64,000 nt of DNA from an uncultured Acidimicrobiales bacterium (GTDB lineage Bacteria; Actinomycetota; Acidimicrobiia; Acidimicrobiales; SZUA-35). The notes below the pieces were generated by a model, which saw only the letters and a list, made by a program, of their open reading frames with translations, was not told the DNA's origin and made no database searches. The DNA is taken from NCBI GenBank assembly GCA_963803875.1, contig CAWDOA010000017.1:15247-79246 (forward strand), read 5' to 3'. This document shows, piece by piece, positions 234 to 47,915 of the stretch. How positions within the stretch are numbered: the first letter of the stretch is position 1; every line of letters begins with the position of its first letter. Both the position numbers and the translations under genes were made by a program.

Positions 234-331
234 CGTTGTGCCCGTTCCCCGGGCATTTCCATCGCCAGTTTGCGAAGGCTTGAAACCGGCGTCCGTTGTG
301 CCCGTAGAACGGGCGTTTCCATCGCCAGTTC
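234..331. repeat. Left doublet of 60-bp-period imperfect palindromic (REP-like) repeat
   Basis: Unit = aaaccggcg-tccgttgt-gcccg-N5-cgggc-gtttccat-cgccagttt plus linker gcgaaggcttg. Copy 1 is 5'-degenerate with loop ttccc (245-249); copy 2 is 283-331 with loop tagaa. Confidence 0.95.
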
Positions 332-433
332 TGCTCAGGGTTGTGAGACGGACCTCGACTTGGCACTCTGTCGATCTGGGCCCGAGGCCGCTCGAGCGTG
401 TGCTCCTTCTGAAAGCCAAACAAAGGGGTTCAC

Positions 434-1369
434 ATGTCCAGCCATTCCATGCGCCGATTTGCGGCGGTCGTCGACGCCGCCCGACACAGCAGTGGTTTCA
501 TCACCAGCGACGAACTCGGTCGAATGAGCATTCCTGCTTCCACCGTTTCGCGATGGGTCAATCTGGGGTTGCTCCACCGAATTCAACGAGGTGTCTTTCG
601 AACCCAATCTGGGGCTTTCGGCTTCGAGGAAAGCCTCGACCTCGCCATGAAGATCGGATCGGACCAACAGGTGATCGGTGGCAGAACGGCACTGGAGGTC
701 TGGGGTCTCCCCGGCGGAGTTCGTACCAAGGTGAACCTCGTCGGCCCTCGAGGAACACGAAGCCGATCCATGCACGTCGTGTCGTGGGAGTCCCGAGACC
801 TTCGGCCGGTCGATTCCGTGCGAAAGGGGCGCTTGCGGCTCACCACGCCGTTGAGGTCGGTAATCGATTCTGCGCCATTCTGTTCCGACGAACAGCTGGG
901 TCAACAGCTCACGGCGGCTGTCCAAGCCCGACACTTCACGTACGAGGATCTTCAAATGCGGCTGGCTGAGTTGTCCAAGCGTGGTCGAAGGGGCCCGGCG
1001 CAGGTTCGCAAGATCCTTCGAGCTCGCATCACTCTGGACGAGCGGGCCGTGAATTCGTACGAGAAGATGGCTCTGCGAGTGTTCGGCCGGGGCGACTTCC
1101 CGCCGCCGATCGCCCAGTACCGAATTGATGTCGGCGGGCGCACCTACTTCGTAGATTTCGCATGGCCGCTCTACGGCGTATTCGTAGAGTGCGATTCGAT
1201 GTTGGCACACTCGAGTCCCGAACAGCTCCAGGCTGATCTCGATCGGCAGAACGATCTGGTTGCTGCCGGCTGGACTCCGGTGCGATTCACCTACTGGGAC
1301 GTGAGCGAGCGGCCCGACGACGTGATTCGCCAACTTGGTCGCCATCTTCCGAGGGCCGTCGCAGCCTGA
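434..1369 (+). CDS. AbiEi-type wHTH + DUF559 (Vsr-like PD-(D/E)XK) nuclease-domain protein
   Basis: N-terminal GFITSDELGRMSIPASTVSRWVNLGLLHRIQRGVF; central LTTPLRSVIDSA; C-terminal VDFAWP..VECDS..AH..D..RQN.L...GW..VRFT. Confidence 0.85.
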   Translation: MSSHSMRRFAAVVDAARHSSGFITSDELGRMSIPASTVSRWVNLGLLHRIQRGVFRTQSGAFGFEESLDLAMKIGSDQQVIGGRTALEVWGLPGGVRTKVNLVGPRGTRSRSMHVVSWESRDLRPVDSVRKGRLRLTTPLRSVIDSAPFCSDEQLGQQLTAAVQARHFTYEDLQMRLAELSKRGRRGPAQVRKILRARITLDERAVNSYEKMALRVFGRGDFPPPIAQYRIDVGGRTYFVDFAWPLYGVFVECDSMLAHSSPEQLQADLDRQNDLVAAGWTPVRFTYWDVSERPDDVIRQLGRHLPRAVAA

Positions 1370-1478
1370 AACCGGCGTCCGTTGTGCCCGCAGGTCGGGC
1401 GTTTCCATCGCCAGTTTGCGAAGGCTTGAAACCGGCGTCCGTTGTGCCCGCAGGACGGGCGCTTCCATCGCCAGTTTG
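1367..1478. repeat. Right doublet of the same 60-bp repeat, same orientation as the left doublet
   Basis: Copies at 1369-1417 (loop caggt) and 1429-1477 (loop cagga) with the identical 11-bp linker; the gene's TGA stop overlaps the start of the repeat. Confidence 0.95.
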
Positions 1479-1498: not shown

Positions 1499-2152
1499 CT
1501 AGCGGTTCGCCGGGGGCAGGAACGTGCGGATCATCGACTCGGCGTGGCGGGTGACCGCCTCGGCGTCGAAGGGAGAGCTGCCGTTCACGGCACTGAACTC
1601 TTCGGCCATCTCGTAGGGGGTGCTGGCCGCTCCGATGAACATGTAGAAGAGGTGGCTCCGATCGGGGACGTCGGCGTCGAGATCGGCGTCGAGATCCGCG
1701 ATCAGTGCATCGAACACTGCGTGGAGAGGGCTGATGTGGGTGTCGATCAGCCACTGAAGTCGGGGCCCTGGGGTCGTATTGGTCAAGAACCGATGAAACT
1801 CAGGGTGTTTGGCGAAGAACACGATTGCCTCGGTCACGAGAATCTCGGCGCGCGCTCGTGGTTGGAGTTTTGCCGAGGTCTCCACGGCGGTTCCGAAAGT
1901 GGCATGGAATTCACCGAAGGCCTTTTCCGCTGCTGCTCGCCACAGGTCGTCCTTGGATCCGAAGTGGAAGTCGACCGCTGCCTGACATACACCTGCTTTG
2001 GTAGCGATGGTGCGGGTGGACGCCGATTCATAACCCTGCGAAGCGAACTCGTGCACACCCGCGGTGATCAGCCGGCTACGGGTTCGCAACGTGCGTTCTT
2101 CGGGATGAACACGCTGAGTGCTCGATCCGCCGCTACGGGAAGCAGGGGCCAT
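1499..2152 (-). CDS. TetR/AcrR family transcriptional regulator
   Basis: HTH LITAGVHEFASQGYESASTRTIATKAGVCQAAVDFHFGSKDDLW; TAGGTT 6 nt before the ATG (leaderless). Confidence 0.92.
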   Translation of the reverse strand: MAPASRSGGSSTQRVHPEERTLRTRSRLITAGVHEFASQGYESASTRTIATKAGVCQAAVDFHFGSKDDLWRAAAEKAFGEFHATFGTAVETSAKLQPRARAEILVTEAIVFFAKHPEFHRFLTNTTPGPRLQWLIDTHISPLHAVFDALIADLDADLDADVPDRSHLFYMFIGAASTPYEMAEEFSAVNGSSPFDAEAVTRHAESMIRTFLPPANR

Positions 2153-45326: not shown

Positions 45327-47915
45327 TTAGGTCCGCCCAAGGTCGGTGAGAGTGAGAACGAGTTCGCCTCGTTCGTTGCTGGCGGGGAGGTCGACCGAGC
45401 CGGTGAGACGCCACTCGTCGTAACCCTGGGGATCGCTGATGATTTGGGTGACGTCGCCGGTGCTGGGTTCCCAGATGAATTTGTGTGGCGATCGTGCTTC
45501 GGCGTCCACCATCACGGCATCGTGTTCGTCGTAGTAGGCGCTGAAGAGGCCGGTGGCTCCTTCGATCGGAACGAGATTGGGACGGTAGAACGCAAGCTCC
45601 TCAACATATTTCCACATGCGATTTCGGACGAGGATCGCGAATGCTTTGGTCTGTGTGAAGTCGGCCATCGGCGGCGGGGGAGCGGGAGCAGCATCGGCCT
45701 CGTCGGGGTTGCGCAGCTTCTCCCATTCGTCGATCAGCGACGAGTCCACCGTACGGATGACCACGTTGAGCCAGTCGATGATCTCTTCGATCTCGGGCGT
45801 GCGAACGTCGATCGGTACGTTCTGGATCAAGCCTTTGTACACATCGGAGAGGTAACGAAGGAGCACACCTTCGCTTCGTTTGAGTCCGTGGTAGTTGATG
45901 TACTCCACGATCGTCATAGCTTCGGTGAGCATCTCTCGCACGATGCTTTTGGGTTTGGGCGTGTATTGGCCGACGTAAGGATGGCGGATTCTGAAGTGGT
46001 CGAAGTGGTTGTAGATCCACTCTCGTTCCGGCTGTGGTGGTCGGACCTCGGCCAGTCGTTCCATTCGTTCCTCGTATTCGACGCCGCGACTCTTCATGTC
46101 GTTCATCAGCTCGGTCTTGGCTCGATCGAGCTGGGCTGCGATGATCACCCCGGGGTTTTCCTGGACCGACTCGACAATGCTGAGTACCCGGTATGCGAAA
46201 GAGTGTTCTGGCTCACCGGGTTCTGATGCCTCGGTCTCGACTGCCGCATGGTGATCTCTGGGTGCCGCTGCGGAGGGACGGAGCAGCTCTTCAGGCTCCT
46301 CAGCGTTGACCGAGCGAAGCGAGCTTGGAGCGACCGGAGGAGGCGCCCCCGGCGCCGACGATGCGAGCGGAATCGAATTGACAGCTGCGATCGCCCAGAG
46401 ACTCAGCGGTTGATGGAGGGCGAATTCTTCCTGCACGTCGAAGGTGACTCGAACCAGGCGGCCCAGCTCGTCGGGCTCGTCGGGAAACTCCAGCAGATCG
46501 GCATCGCGCAATGATCGATAGATACGTATCGCCTGCCGTTTGTGTCCCCGCTTTCGTCGTTCGGTCTCGTGATTCTCTTTCAGGATTTGTTGCATTGCAC
46601 CACACCCGTCGCCGGCGCGATCGAGGACGTTCAGCATCATCTGATGACTCACGTCAAAGCTGCTGGTGAGCGGTTCGGGCTCGCCGTTCACCATCCGGTT
46701 GAAGGTGTCCTCTGTCCAGTGGGTGTAGCGCCGGTCGGGGGCTTGCTTCTTCTTCGGTTTCTTCTTGCTGCTGGAAGCCGCCGCCTTCTCTTCGGCGCGG
46801 GCGTTCTCCACCACATGGGGCGGCGCCTGCACCCACACGTGGCCTTCGGTGTCGAACCCTCGCCGACCGGCCCGGCCGGCGATCTGCTTGAACTCGCGGT
46901 TGGTGAGCAGACGATTGGAGCGACCGTCGTATTTGCAGAGTTGGGTGAAAAGAACCGATCGGATCGGCACGTTGACGCCTACGCCAAGGGTGTCGGTTCC
47001 GCAGATGATCTTCAGCAGTCCCTCTTGTGCGAGCTTCTCGATCAGCAACCGATATTTCGGGAGCAGGCCGGCGTGGTGGACGCCGACGCCTCCGGTGATC
47101 CAGCGCCGCATGTCCTTTCCGATCGGCGTGTCGAACCGGAAGCCGCCGATCGCCTCCTTGATCTTGGCCTTCTCTTCCTTGGAGAGTGGGTCGAGGCTCA
47201 GGTAGCTCTGAGCAGCCTCGGTCGCCTCCCGTTGGGTGAAGTGGACGAGGTAGATCGGTGCCCGATCGGTCTCGAGGAGGTCCGAAACCGAAGCGTGAAG
47301 GGTTGTATGCCGGTACTCGAACGTGAGCGGCACCGGCCGGTCCGTTGACTTCACGGTGATCGCAGCTCGGCCGGTGCGTTCGGTGAGATCGCGCTCGAAG
47401 AACTGGGTCGGACCGAGGGTCGCGCTCATCAAGCAGAACTGGGTTTGGGGCAGCTCCAGCAAGGGCACCTGCCACGCCCAGCCTCGCTGTGGGTCGGCGT
47501 AGTAGTGAAACTCGTCGACCACTGCCTGATCGACGTTTGCTCGCGATCCTTCTCGCAGTGCCAGATTGGCGAGGATCTCGGCGGTGCAGCAGATGATGGG
47601 AGCGTCACTGTTGATGCTGGCGTCACCGGTGACCATCCCCACGTTCTCAGCGCCGAAGTCGTTGCTGAGGCTGAAGAACTTCTCGCTCACGAGAGCCTTG
47701 ATCGGTGCGGTGTAGTAGCTGCGGTGGCCGAGCTTCAGCGATGCGTAGTGGACGGCCGCTCCCACCAAGCTCTTTCCTGATCCGGTGGGCGTGTTGAGAA
47801 TGACGTGGTTTCCACTGTAGAGCTCGAGGATCGCTTCGAGCTGGTGGTCGTACAGCTCTAGGCCGAGCTGGGTAGCGAACTCGGTGAAGCCGTCGAGTAG
47901 TTCACCTTCGTCCAC
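45327..47915 (-). CDS. DEAD/DEAH-box (Ski2-like) helicase with DUF3516
   Basis: TPTGSGKS, VVDEFHYY, MSAT, GTDTLGVGVN, QIAGRAGRRG, RSEGVLLRYLSD. Confidence 0.93.
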   Translation of the reverse strand: MDEGELLDGFTEFATQLGLELYDHQLEAILELYSGNHVILNTPTGSGKSLVGAAVHYASLKLGHRSYYTAPIKALVSEKFFSLSNDFGAENVGMVTGDASINSDAPIICCTAEILANLALREGSRANVDQAVVDEFHYYADPQRGWAWQVPLLELPQTQFCLMSATLGPTQFFERDLTERTGRAAITVKSTDRPVPLTFEYRHTTLHASVSDLLETDRAPIYLVHFTQREATEAAQSYLSLDPLSKEEKAKIKEAIGGFRFDTPIGKDMRRWITGGVGVHHAGLLPKYRLLIEKLAQEGLLKIICGTDTLGVGVNVPIRSVLFTQLCKYDGRSNRLLTNREFKQIAGRAGRRGFDTEGHVWVQAPPHVVENARAEEKAAASSSKKKPKKKQAPDRRYTHWTEDTFNRMVNGEPEPLTSSFDVSHQMMLNVLDRAGDGCGAMQQILKENHETERRKRGHKRQAIRIYRSLRDADLLEFPDEPDELGRLVRVTFDVQEEFALHQPLSLWAIAAVNSIPLASSAPGAPPPVAPSSLRSVNAEEPEELLRPSAAAPRDHHAAVETEASEPGEPEHSFAYRVLSIVESVQENPGVIIAAQLDRAKTELMNDMKSRGVEYEERMERLAEVRPPQPEREWIYNHFDHFRIRHPYVGQYTPKPKSIVREMLTEAMTIVEYINYHGLKRSEGVLLRYLSDVYKGLIQNVPIDVRTPEIEEIIDWLNVVIRTVDSSLIDEWEKLRNPDEADAAPAPPPPMADFTQTKAFAILVRNRMWKYVEELAFYRPNLVPIEGATGLFSAYYDEHDAVMVDAEARSPHKFIWEPSTGDVTQIISDPQGYDEWRLTGSVDLPASNERGELVLTLTDLGRT
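46260..46348. other. Structured ~89-nt element lying in frame inside the helicase gene
   Basis: Nested stems gggtgc/gcgccc, cgctg/cagcg, ggagc/gctcc, ccgagc/gcttgg; encodes GAPPPVAPSSLRSVNAEEPEELLRPSAAAP. Confidence 0.5.

Follow-up and report, generated by a model that had tools for sequence, protein, structure and literature searches.

A conserved AbiEi-like, Vsr-type nuclease gene framed by REP-like palindromes suggests a repeat-and-enzyme partnership in an uncultured Acidimicrobiales lineage

The window analysed here, a 64,000-nt stretch from the genome of an uncultured Acidimicrobiales lineage (G000; 3.6 Mb, 91% complete), contains a plus-strand gene at positions 434–1369, which encodes a 311-residue protein assigned by Pfam, PADLOC, AlphaFold2 and fold matches to an AbiEi-like module joined to a nuclease of the Vsr/DUF559/EDxHD type. 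The gene is bracketed by four 49-nt REP-like palindromes, all on the plus strand, that form two direct doublets: L1 (223–271) and L2 (283–331) on the left, and R1 (1369–1417) and R2 (1429–1477) on the right. The two copies of each doublet are joined by an 11-nt plus-strand linker (272–282 and 1418–1428), identical on both sides, and related linkers are present in the cassettes of G006 and G010. A repeat search returns the two doublets as a 102-nt direct repeat (229–330 versus 1375–1476) with 89% identity. Each of the four copies matches, at E values of 3e-12 to 2e-15 against the whole genome, a profile built from those same four copies, and each is also matched by the covariance model (L1: profile E 3.3e-12, covariance-model match C17:15469–15517). 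L1 has a divergent 5′ arm, which reaches into the stop codon of the upstream aldo/keto reductase gene, ending at 229; the stop codon of the nuclease gene (TGA, 1367–1369) shares its final base with the first base of R1; and R2 ends 21 nt short of the stop codon of the convergent TetR gene (1499–2152, minus strand). An AMP-binding enzyme is also among the neighbours. The preliminary description had read this layout correctly, including the paired direct palindromes with identical linkers, the stop codon running into the right repeat and the position between two convergent genes.

The segment between the left repeats and the start codon (332–433, plus strand) is a conserved leader. Alignment of positions 320–445 with G006 and G010 gives a mean column identity of 84% with long invariant blocks, even though dS of the gene is saturated between G000 and G010, and the leader probably holds the promoter and the 5′ UTR. 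A scan of positions 1–1700 found no σ70 consensus on the gene strand, the one promoter-like site being antisense; a simple terminator scan of the same interval found no terminators, and Rfam, searched at permissive thresholds on positions 1–2400, gave no match.

The hairpin proposed in the preliminary description is retained in its outer stem, its internal loop of about 7–8 by 7–8 nt and its inner G+C stem, but the 9-bp outer stem carries one C/A mismatch. The four flanking copies fold as DNA at −10.2 to −11.9 kcal/mol (L2, with its internal loop, at −10.7 kcal/mol). Across 38 copies from five genomes, 83.8% of cells are paired in the hairpin register, versus 29–43% when the partner column is slid; 10 of the 21 hairpin pairs vary on both sides, and the covariation score of 0.264 compares with 0.183 in shuffles and was attained by none of 500. 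G-U pairs occur among the sense-strand hairpin pairs, and the 38-copy consensus has no GTAG end. The four copies at the gene are imperfect hybrids of two arm types and are the weakest hairpins of the repeat family, which agrees with binding of the protein to duplex DNA no less than with cutting of hairpins.

In the protein, the AbiEi-like DNA-binding module occupies approximately residues 1–200 and the nuclease domain approximately residues 205–305. Pfam reports AbiEi_4 and, with a modest 22.3 bits (cut-off 20.6), DUF559, while MTES_1575 stays below its cut-off; PADLOC matches AbiEi over residues 9–190 (E 3.4e-18), with whole AbiEi models covered. NCBIfam holds no family for the 311-residue protein, and its search shows no transposase domain. 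The structure predicted by AlphaFold2 (pLDDT 90.8) has fold matches to 6y8q, 1zel, 3r3p, 1cw0, 1vsr and 3hrl. Specifically, the N-terminal part matches the AbiEi structure 6y8q (Foldseek E 1.4e-6), while the C-terminal part matches the catalytic domain of I-Bth0305I (3r3p; TM 0.74–0.75 on target) as well as Vsr and DUF559 folds; sequence-profile searches of the PDB return 3hrl (E 4.2e-6) and 3r3p (E 5.8e-4). The predicted fold thus confirms the DUF559/Vsr-like nuclease domain that had been proposed from the sequence. Across 44 homologues, D241 and E252 do not vary, at least 90% keep D254, H259 and D268, and, in our own reading of the alignment, these five residues appear to map onto the EDxHD motif.

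A homodimer model built with a custom alignment scores 0.42, versus 0.00 for the best of three controls, passing a mark that 20 of 30 proteins solved as same-chain pairs reach, compared with 1 of 23 single-chain structures, though resemblance to solved dimers may account for the pass. At least 56% of contacts recur between runs, the partner pLDDT is at least 79, and the interface lies at residues 254–304. The gene is under strong purifying selection, with a dN/dS of about 0.09 (0.085 versus G006 and 0.091 versus G010; full range 0.085–0.106). No AbiEii toxin gene is found among the reductase, TetR and AMP-binding neighbours, as had been noted, nor elsewhere: the AbiEii profile (PF08843) has no match across the 91%-complete genome, the same profile having matched 3 of 14 control genomes. 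The earlier designation of the gene as an orphan does not hold, since five distant paralogues exist in G000.

The palindrome is not confined to the gene. A profile search of G000, stable over three iterations, finds 25 copies on nine contigs, four at the gene and 21 elsewhere, so the stand-alone copies that the preliminary description had suggested looking for do exist. Most of these lie just past stop codons, often between convergent genes as judged by crude ORF calls, and gene-less doublets are found elsewhere in G000, G006, G010 and G002. Two further pairs of the same repeat in G000 bracket unrelated small genes, one coding for a coiled-coil protein and one for a strictosidine-synthase-like protein; bracketing is therefore not exclusive to the nuclease gene. 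Eight of the 13 repeat regions examined in G006 are orthologous to G000 repeat sites. The repeats are thus mostly old and not on the move, and, because most stand-alone copies sit at orthologous sites in a sister species, the system in G000 appears to be preserved and not to be spreading actively. Additional DNA found at such orthologous sites in G010 (~1.2 kb), G001 (~0.9 kb) and G000 (contig C11, ~1.3 kb) was considered as further cassettes and rejected, as it consists of inserted unrelated genes. The RAYT transposase profile Y1_Tnp (PF01797), which matched 6 of 14 reference genomes in a control, has no match in G000, G006, G010 or G002 and a single weak match (29.6 bits) in G005; no Y1/RAYT enzyme was thus found in G000 or in three of the four other repeat-positive genomes, in line with the preliminary description. 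Against the partnership proposed below, the largest short-repeat family of G000 (124 sites) and a 10-site palindrome family adjoin none of these nuclease genes.

The gene and the repeat occur together. In a covariance-model search of 88 genomes of the family, in which counts overstate the evidence as related genomes are non-independent samples, the repeat is present at seven or more sites only in G000, G006, G010, G005 and G002, each of which has the cognate gene framed by the repeat; three marginal cases lie outside these five. The model found nothing in G003, G004, G008 and G009, which are without the cognate gene. G007, 55% complete, shows a single repeat site, with no gene detected, and G001 has the gene clade with only one marginal match. 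Furthermore, the repeat changes with the protein. G005 and G002 carry a 52%-identical gene framed by a variant repeat that keeps the core and has a new outer stem, and this variant is the one scattered through both genomes. G021, with a 53%-identical gene, has 14 matches to that gene's own repeat. In G039, where the gene is 25% identical, its palindrome is found at 25 sites, 23 of them without mismatch, versus none for a reversed control pattern. Flanking copies are 84–97% alike within a genome versus 52–82% between genomes (89% for the sister genomes G005 and G002), while dS of the gene is saturated between G000 and G010; the copies thus evolve in concert. Repeats diverge in step with the protein, an outcome in favour of the preliminary description, which had suggested a test of repeat/protein co-phylogeny.

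Framing by repeats is also a property of the wider protein family. Of 44 non-redundant homologue loci, spanning 22–100% identity, 25 show matches between the repeats of their two 500-nt flanks at E≤1e-5, and 16 do so at E≤1e-10, whereas among 300 random G000 ORFs of similar size one reaches E<1e-5 and none reaches E<1e-10; homologues are thus strongly enriched for flanking palindromes, as had been predicted. The upstream repeat usually ends 45–160 nt ahead of the start codon, and the downstream repeat abuts or overlaps the stop codon. Among the 19 loci without such matches at E≤1e-5 are two of G001's three close copies; the C132 copy of that genome, with no matched flanks by BLAST and, by eye, weak hairpins sharing ~10 nt, was considered and not counted as framed. 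Three of the five G000 paralogues are framed by repeat families of their own (4, 15 and 36 sites), and a fourth has a short 16–19-nt match.

The gene is syntenic in three species (G000, G006 and G010) and present as one cognate copy in each of G000, G006, G010, G005 and G002, with G001, which has three copies, as the exception. Three relatives, G004 (with a 25-nt spacer), G003 and G001, have the otherwise conserved reductase–TetR site without the gene, providing the empty sites that the preliminary description had suggested looking for, and no palindrome copy was found at any of them. For the locus occupied in G005 and G002, G000 was considered as an empty site and set aside, since the two flanks lie ~5 kb apart there. 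More widely, close homologues occupy different loci in different genomes, and several genomes carry three to eight copies. Searches of 72,556 plasmids and 50,697 phages returned no homologue at E≤1e-8, and no target-site duplication lies beside 20 near-identical copies in G039. In this lineage the gene has the character of a domesticated one, inherited vertically at a single locus. Among metagenome contigs, a joint from 331 to 1494 (X2), considered as an empty site, was rejected, being the repeat adjoining the TetR end in an 88%-alike relative. One low-depth contig (X3) links 1369 back to 250, joining the 3′ end of the gene through the repeat to the left doublet; this joint may reflect tandem or circular copies, or else the passage of the assembly through the repeat, and is no more than a weak hint.

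The explanation that we favour, and that we hold to be somewhat probable, is a partnership of repeat and enzyme like that of REPs and RAYTs, but based on an unrelated, probably dimeric, palindrome-recognising nuclease. The preliminary description had put forward a REPtron-like system using another enzyme family, and the computational checks support it; binding, cleavage, the symmetry of the dimer on DNA and a role in spreading or homogenising the repeats are what we infer from them. As the dimer model suggests, the protein probably acts as a homodimer. Its AbiEi-like winged-helix module would recognise both half-sites of its own lineage-specific palindrome, its Vsr/EDxHD-type nuclease domains, judging from their folds, may cut at or near the palindrome, and subsequent repair or re-joining would create, copy and homogenise palindromes. 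Such a cut-and-repair scheme would explain the constant framing of the gene, the genome-wide palindrome and the joint change or loss of gene and repeats. Stand-alone repeats at gene 3′ ends could double as hairpins in transcripts. More tentatively, and with greater doubt, Actinobacteria (here the class Acidimicrobiia) might harbour an unrecognised palindrome-propagating class, in which each nuclease, a dimer of the AbiEi-winged-helix/Vsr type, would bind the long palindrome of its own system in duplex or cruciform form and cleave it at the dyad or close by, re-joining or repair would then create, copy and homogenise palindromes across the chromosome, and the imperfect copies flanking the gene would represent a protected or immune form. 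No description of such a system was found in the literature searched.

Three other explanations have to be weighed. The cassette of repeat, leader, gene and repeat could be a self-mobile selfish unit that moves by a homing-like or cut-and-rejoin route, the nuclease cutting its cognate palindrome elsewhere and the cassette being copied or ligated in, with stand-alone palindromes as landing pads or excision footprints instead of products in their own right. The cassette is indeed an insertion relative to G004, G003 and G001, close homologues sit at different loci and reach three to eight copies in some genomes, the nuclease domain matches a homing endonuclease proven as such in PMC3239194 (3r3p), direct repeats on both sides would permit excision by recombination, the gene-less doublets could be read in the same way, and so could the X3 joint, if that single low-depth contig is not a repeat path in the assembly graph. 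However, three species retain the gene at a single locus over a time in which its synonymous sites became saturated, and this retention, together with a dN/dS of ~0.09, is unlike the invade-and-decay cycle of homing genes. Single cognate copies in five genomes, the lack of homologues on the plasmids and phages searched, the lack of target-site duplications beside the G039 copies and the empty sites of relatives without a stand-alone repeat also argue against this explanation, which we consider unlikely.

Less probable still is that the protein is a DNA-binding nuclease that regulates its own gene and serves some other purpose, for example defence or repair. The palindromes ahead of the gene would then act as operators of the AbiEi type and those behind it as terminators, and the copies across the genome would be either a regulon or common terminator hairpins used by the protein as well. 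This reading would suit the match of residues 9–190 to whole AbiEi models and to an AbiEi structure, the autoregulation of AbiEi antitoxins through promoter inverted repeats (PMC7319586), the upstream repeats ~100 nt ahead of the start codon followed by a conserved leader, the stand-alone copies just past stop codons and often between convergent genes (crude ORF calls), and the G-U pairs of the sense-strand hairpin. But an operator would not account for a copy of the palindrome directly at the stop codon in most homologues, for repeat families that come and go together with the gene from one genome to another, or for the identity of 23 of 25 copies in G039; moreover, no AbiEii partner was found in the genome and the simple scan found no terminator at the locus. 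Finally, the bracketing could be without functional meaning, with REP-like repeats and horizontally acquired genes gathering in the same variable intergenic spots. Repeat sites are variable spots in G010, G001 and G000, where unrelated genes were inserted, and two other repeat pairs bracket unrelated genes, yet the contrast between 25 of 44 loci and 1 of 300 controls comes close to refuting this, and paralogues with their own repeat families, the constant position of repeats relative to start and stop and the concerted evolution of flanking copies make such a coincidence highly improbable.

REP-like palindromes are among the commonest bacterial repeats, and a partner enzyme is known only for those served by RAYT tyrosine transposases; whole REP classes have been described without a dedicated transposase (PMC3733652). 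Judging from this locus and related ones, a second enzyme family, unrelated to the RAYTs, appears to share their genomic signature: one conserved gene lies among repeats of its own, the pairing of gene and repeat is lineage-specific, and the two are present or absent together. If true, the partnership would give RAYT-less REP families of high-G+C Gram-positive bacteria an origin that can be tested, would add a new family of long-site, programmable-looking palindrome nucleases, and would mean that the routine annotation of these genes as AbiEi antitoxins needs correcting. A palindrome-propagating class, should it exist, would provide a protein-sequence-specific, transposase-free route to REP-like repeats and an answer to how RAYT-less REP families arise and persist.

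IS200/IS605 elements are small, carry a gene between subterminal hairpins, lack classical terminal inverted repeats and make no target duplication. The cassette resembles them as a small element with a gene between hairpins, but it has no Y1 transposase, and its flanking hairpins are full copies of one palindrome instead of distinct ends. Nor does it look like an insertion sequence or MITE, having no transposase domain, flanking units in direct orientation and no duplication at 20 G039 copies. With the AbiEi antitoxin of type IV AbiE systems (6y8q; Rv2827c, 1zel), the protein shares, in sequence and fold, its first ~200 residues, which match the whole two-domain AbiEi, antitoxin winged helix and C-terminal domain alike, and AbiEi proteins bind inverted repeats (PMC7319586). 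It differs in that no adjacent AbiEii (DUF1814 nucleotidyltransferase) gene forming a bicistronic operon is found, a nuclease domain is fused, and the palindromes lie also downstream and genome-wide.

The nuclease part itself has the Vsr-type PD-(D/E)XK fold and the conserved acidic and histidine residues of DUF559/Vsr-like (EDxHD) enzymes. It shares this fold, and the order of a DNA-binding part followed by a C-terminal nuclease, with I-Bth0305I (3r3p), a homodimer whose footprint spans ~60 bp at a pseudopalindrome (PMC3239194), not far from the length of the 49-nt palindrome described here. I-Bth0305I sits in a group I intron of a phage recA gene and uses NUMOD-type DNA-binding motifs (PMC3239194), whereas the present gene stands free in an intergenic region, encodes an AbiEi-like module and has intact copies of its presumed target on either side. 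It lies neither in an intron or intein nor in an interrupted site of its own: full palindromes stand on both sides, and none was found at the gene-less sites of G003, G001 and G004.

The closest likeness is to the REP/RAYT systems (REPtrons; REPIN-RAYT) of Proteobacteria, in which a chromosomal gene, mostly present once and passed on vertically, lies among copies of a palindromic family dispersed over the genome, each gene lineage has its own repeat family, and gene and repeats are present or absent together (PMC5581495, PMC3733652). Correspondingly, the gene is flanked by a dispersed repeat family in G000, G006, G010, G005, G002, G021 and G039, and it is a vertically inherited gene under purifying selection, with one cognate copy in each of the first five of these genomes and, as the exception, three copies in G001. 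In contrast to REPtrons, it encodes AbiEi_4 and DUF559, that is, an AbiEi-like winged helix and a Vsr-type PD-(D/E)XK nuclease, not a Y1 HUH transposase (PF01797); its 49-nt palindromes stand in direct tandem doublets without a 5′ GTAG tag, whereas REPs form inverted pairs (REPINs); and its likely substrate would be dimer-bound duplex or cruciform DNA, not a single-strand hairpin. CGTC-type and untagged REP families are likewise palindromic intergenic repeats, for which no RAYT is found (PMC3733652); here, in contrast, position, co-occurrence and co-divergence point to a candidate dedicated enzyme.

The compact cassette, positions 223–1477 of the window, is flanked by a convergent gene pair whose 3′ ends face it: an aldo/keto reductase gene on one side and a TetR regulator gene on the other, with a gene for an AMP-binding enzyme next after the latter. 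Along the forward strand it is composed of palindromic unit L1 (223–271, 49 nt), a linker (272–282, 11 nt), unit L2 (283–331, 49 nt), a leader (332–433, 102 nt), the focal gene (434–1369, 311 codons), unit R1 (1369–1417), an 11-nt linker identical to the first (1418–1428) and unit R2 (1429–1477, 49 nt). The first base of R1 is overlapped by the stop codon of the focal gene. All four 49-nt units have the orientation of the gene, and in a repeat search the left and right doublets match each other directly over 102 nt with 89% identity. As single-stranded DNA each unit folds into the hairpin put forward in the preliminary description, in which a symmetric internal loop separates the outer stem from a G+C inner stem, except that the outer stem carries one mismatch. 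The fold energies of the four units are −10.2 to −11.9 kcal/mol, and positions 1–2400 have no match in Rfam.

The focal protein matches AbiEi_4 in Pfam (residues 15–56), with DUF559 barely above and MTES_1575 below the cut-off, while the PADLOC AbiEi models cover residues 9–190 (E 3.4e-18). From 44 homologues an AlphaFold2 model was built (mean pLDDT 90.8), whose first ~200 residues match AbiEi antitoxin over its full length (6y8q) and also Rv2827c (1zel). For the last ~100 residues the fold matches are to the homing endonuclease I-Bth0305I in its catalytic domain (3r3p; TM 0.74 on target), to Vsr (1cw0, 1vsr) and to a structure of DUF559 (3hrl), and sequence-profile matches accord with these. 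D241 and E252 are invariant among the 44 homologues, and conservation is 90% or more at D254, H259 and D268; in our reading these residues supply the acids and the histidine of an EDxHD/Vsr active site. As the preliminary description stated, no AbiEii toxin partner is encoded near the gene, and none was found in the source genome G000 either.

A two-copy model of the protein scores 0.42 against 0.00 for the best of three controls and passes its mark, although the model used a custom alignment and likeness to solved dimers may add to the pass. Of 30 proteins with solved structures as one-chain pairs, 20 reach this mark, as does 1 of 23 with single-chain structures. The runs have at least 56% of contacts in common, with pLDDT of at least 79, and place a symmetric interface at residues 254–304 of the nuclease domain. 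The modelling supports, rather than shows, dimerisation of the focal protein. I-Bth0305I is described as a homodimer with a footprint of ~60 bp around a pseudopalindrome (PMC3239194), and inverted repeats are the reported binding sites of AbiEi antitoxins (PMC7319586).

Homologue loci were gathered from searches of genomes and related loci; removal of duplicates and of two loci truncated at the end of a contig (L031 and L032) left 44, with 22–100% identity to the focal protein. These and 300 random G000 ORFs of 230–380 aa were judged on matching repeats in both 500-nt flanks. The predicted enrichment is borne out: 25 of the 44 homologue loci have such repeats at E ≤ 1e-5 versus 1 of the 300 control ORFs, and 16 versus none at E ≤ 1e-10. 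The single matching control ORF adjoins a paralogue of the focal gene. Among the 25 doubly flanked loci the repeats are direct in 21 (E ≤ 1e-5); the 19 loci that miss this threshold include two close copies in the relative G001. The anatomy is constant. Upstream, the repeat usually ends 45–160 nt ahead of the start codon; downstream, it touches or overlaps the stop codon. These repeats, 28–60 nt long, are palindromic and differ in sequence by lineage. Throughout the close clade the period is ~60 nt, with upstream and downstream units numbering 2+1 in G006 (93% identity to the focal protein), 2+2 in G010 (72%), 2+2 in G021 (53%), 1+2 in G005 (52%) and 2+1 in G002 (51%).

G000, in which the window occupies C17:15247–79246, comprises 3.63 Mb in 21 contigs, is 91% complete and has a G+C content of 60–63% per contig. 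A profile built from the four cassette copies and iterated three times over this genome converges on 25 copies, so that the stand-alone copies for which the preliminary description proposed a search do exist: 21 of them, on eight other contigs. By crude ORF calls these are intergenic; most follow directly on a stop codon, and the genes on either side are often convergent. Most are far better palindromes than the cassette copies, with a mean DNA fold of −17.7 kcal/mol (range −11.9 to −26.0; rank test p = 0.002, the copies being non-independent). The weak pairing of the gene-flanking copies could mean that they are a protected version of the target, or that they are simple operators in duplex form. 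When 38 copies drawn from five genomes are aligned, 83.8% of cells are paired in the hairpin register of 21 pairs, versus 29–43% with the partner column slid. Both sides change in 10 of these 21 pairs, and the covariation score lies above all 500 shuffles. Two neighbouring pairs are mostly G-T/T-G on the sense strand of the focal gene, and the two strands of the palindrome are therefore not equivalent. Repeat-unit number per site differs between species, with a doublet at C11:388055–388174 of G006 answering to a single unit at C8:118983 of G000; cassette units likewise differ (2+1 in G006, 2+2 in G000).

A covariance model of the palindrome, run on 88 genomes of the family, finds 25 sites in G000, 17 in G006, 13 in G002, 8 in G010 and 7 in G005, each of which carries a cognate gene (a member of the focal-gene clade) framed by the repeat. 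G007, 55% complete, has one site, and no cognate gene was found in it. One marginal match each occurs in G001, with three copies of the focal-gene clade, and in G032, with only a distant family member (E 2.3e-44). Four genomes of the same genus (G003, G004, G008 and G009) have neither site nor clade member, and the other 76 genomes have no site. The variant scattered in G005 and G002, absent from G001, G003 and G004, retains the core and has a new outer stem that is again self-complementary. The repeat of the G021 gene has 14 matches in that genome. G039 belongs to a different family within the order; there a 25% identical homologue is flanked by a palindrome found at 25 sites, 23 of them without mismatch in 28 specified bases; a reversed control pattern gives 0.

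Among 20 near-identical G039 copies inspected, none has a direct target duplication beside the palindrome. In 6 of 20 copies (L123–L142) the two variable bases just outside it are mutually complementary (chance ~1), as if copies were centred in palindromic 4-mers or arms corrected against each other. Four copies (L124, L130, L136 and L141), one of them upstream of the gene, have a further ~40 nt in common on one outer side, and the repeated unit may there be longer than the palindrome.

G000 also encodes five distant paralogues of the focal gene. Three are framed by palindrome families of their own, with 4, 15 and 36 sites genome-wide; the fourth has only a 16–19-nt flank match and the fifth none. 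At C13:51650–51960, a site that in G001 is occupied by a close homologue of the focal gene, two palindromes of the family framing paralogue C16:593295–594371 lie ~240 nt apart with no gene between, and could represent a gene-less derivative or a hot spot. The largest short-repeat family (124 sites, median ~133 nt) is G+C-rich, heterogeneous and composite; its one member in the window (46261–46376) adjoins no AbiEi-DUF559 gene. A separate palindromic repeat of ~46–58 nt occupies 10 sites (C16:789578–808221, C6:81536–107649 and C9:213804), six of them within 20 kb on C16, with no paralogue adjoining by a 250-nt criterion. Beside one stand-alone repeat, ~1.3 kb (C11:155050–156361) is missing from G006; judged by eye, its ORFs resemble a TauD/gamma-butyrobetaine-hydroxylase-type dioxygenase, possibly frameshifted.

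The cassette occupies the same reductase–TetR site in G000, G006 and G010. Empty versions of this site, which the preliminary description had suggested looking for in relatives, differ in content: G004 has a spacer of 25 nt, the 150 nt in G003 are unrelated in sequence, and the 178 nt in G001 include another palindrome; thus the whole cassette, repeats included, is a unit of insertion or deletion. The focal gene is under strong purifying selection, with dN/dS of 0.085 against G006 (dS 0.53) and 0.091 against G010 (dS ~2.6, saturated), and the ~100-nt leader retains long invariant blocks across the three genomes. Flanking copies are 84–97% alike within a genome and 52–82% between genomes (89% for the sisters G005 and G002), indicating that they evolve in concert. 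The 13 G006 repeat regions compared hold 14 of the 17 sites in that genome, and eight of these regions have an orthologous repeat site in G000; most stand-alone copies are older than the split of these genomes. G003 lacks the repeat at one aligned orthologous site.

The mechanism that we consider most likely, with moderate confidence, is that a dimer would bind the palindrome through its AbiEi-like modules, the Vsr-type domains would cut at or near the bound palindrome, and cutting followed by repair would generate and homogenise palindrome copies; its biochemistry we infer throughout. The main rival, possible but rather unlikely, takes the cassette itself as a mobile, homing-like unit and the stand-alone copies as its landing pads or footprints. 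It can draw on the empty sites, but is weakened by long persistence at a single locus under purifying selection. That the protein has a purely regulatory role or one in defence is improbable, as this leaves the downstream and dispersed copies and the co-occurrence of gene and repeat unexplained. That the repeats bracket the gene by coincidence is scarcely credible and is excluded in practice by the 300-ORF control.

A literature search, thin on subscription journals, found no link of the AbiEi-DUF559 family to repeats, and no paper on DUF559 together with AbiEi, on REPIN/RAYT in Actinobacteria or on REP palindromes with a Vsr endonuclease. By title or opening of the abstract, none of the DUF559 papers listed concerns repeats, and the RAYT/REPIN and nuclease papers found all concern Y1 enzymes. 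A search for Y1/RAYT transposases found none in G000, G006, G010 and G002 and one weak match each in G005 and G001. The proposed partnership of nuclease and palindrome differs from REP/RAYT in its enzyme, which is unrelated to the HUH Y1 transposases. It resembles REP/RAYT (PMC5581495, PMC3733652) in having a conserved gene on the chromosome, usually in one copy, that is framed by a genome-populating repeat family, in the lineage-specific pairing of gene and repeat, and in their joint presence or absence. No homologue of the focal protein was found in plasmid and phage collections.
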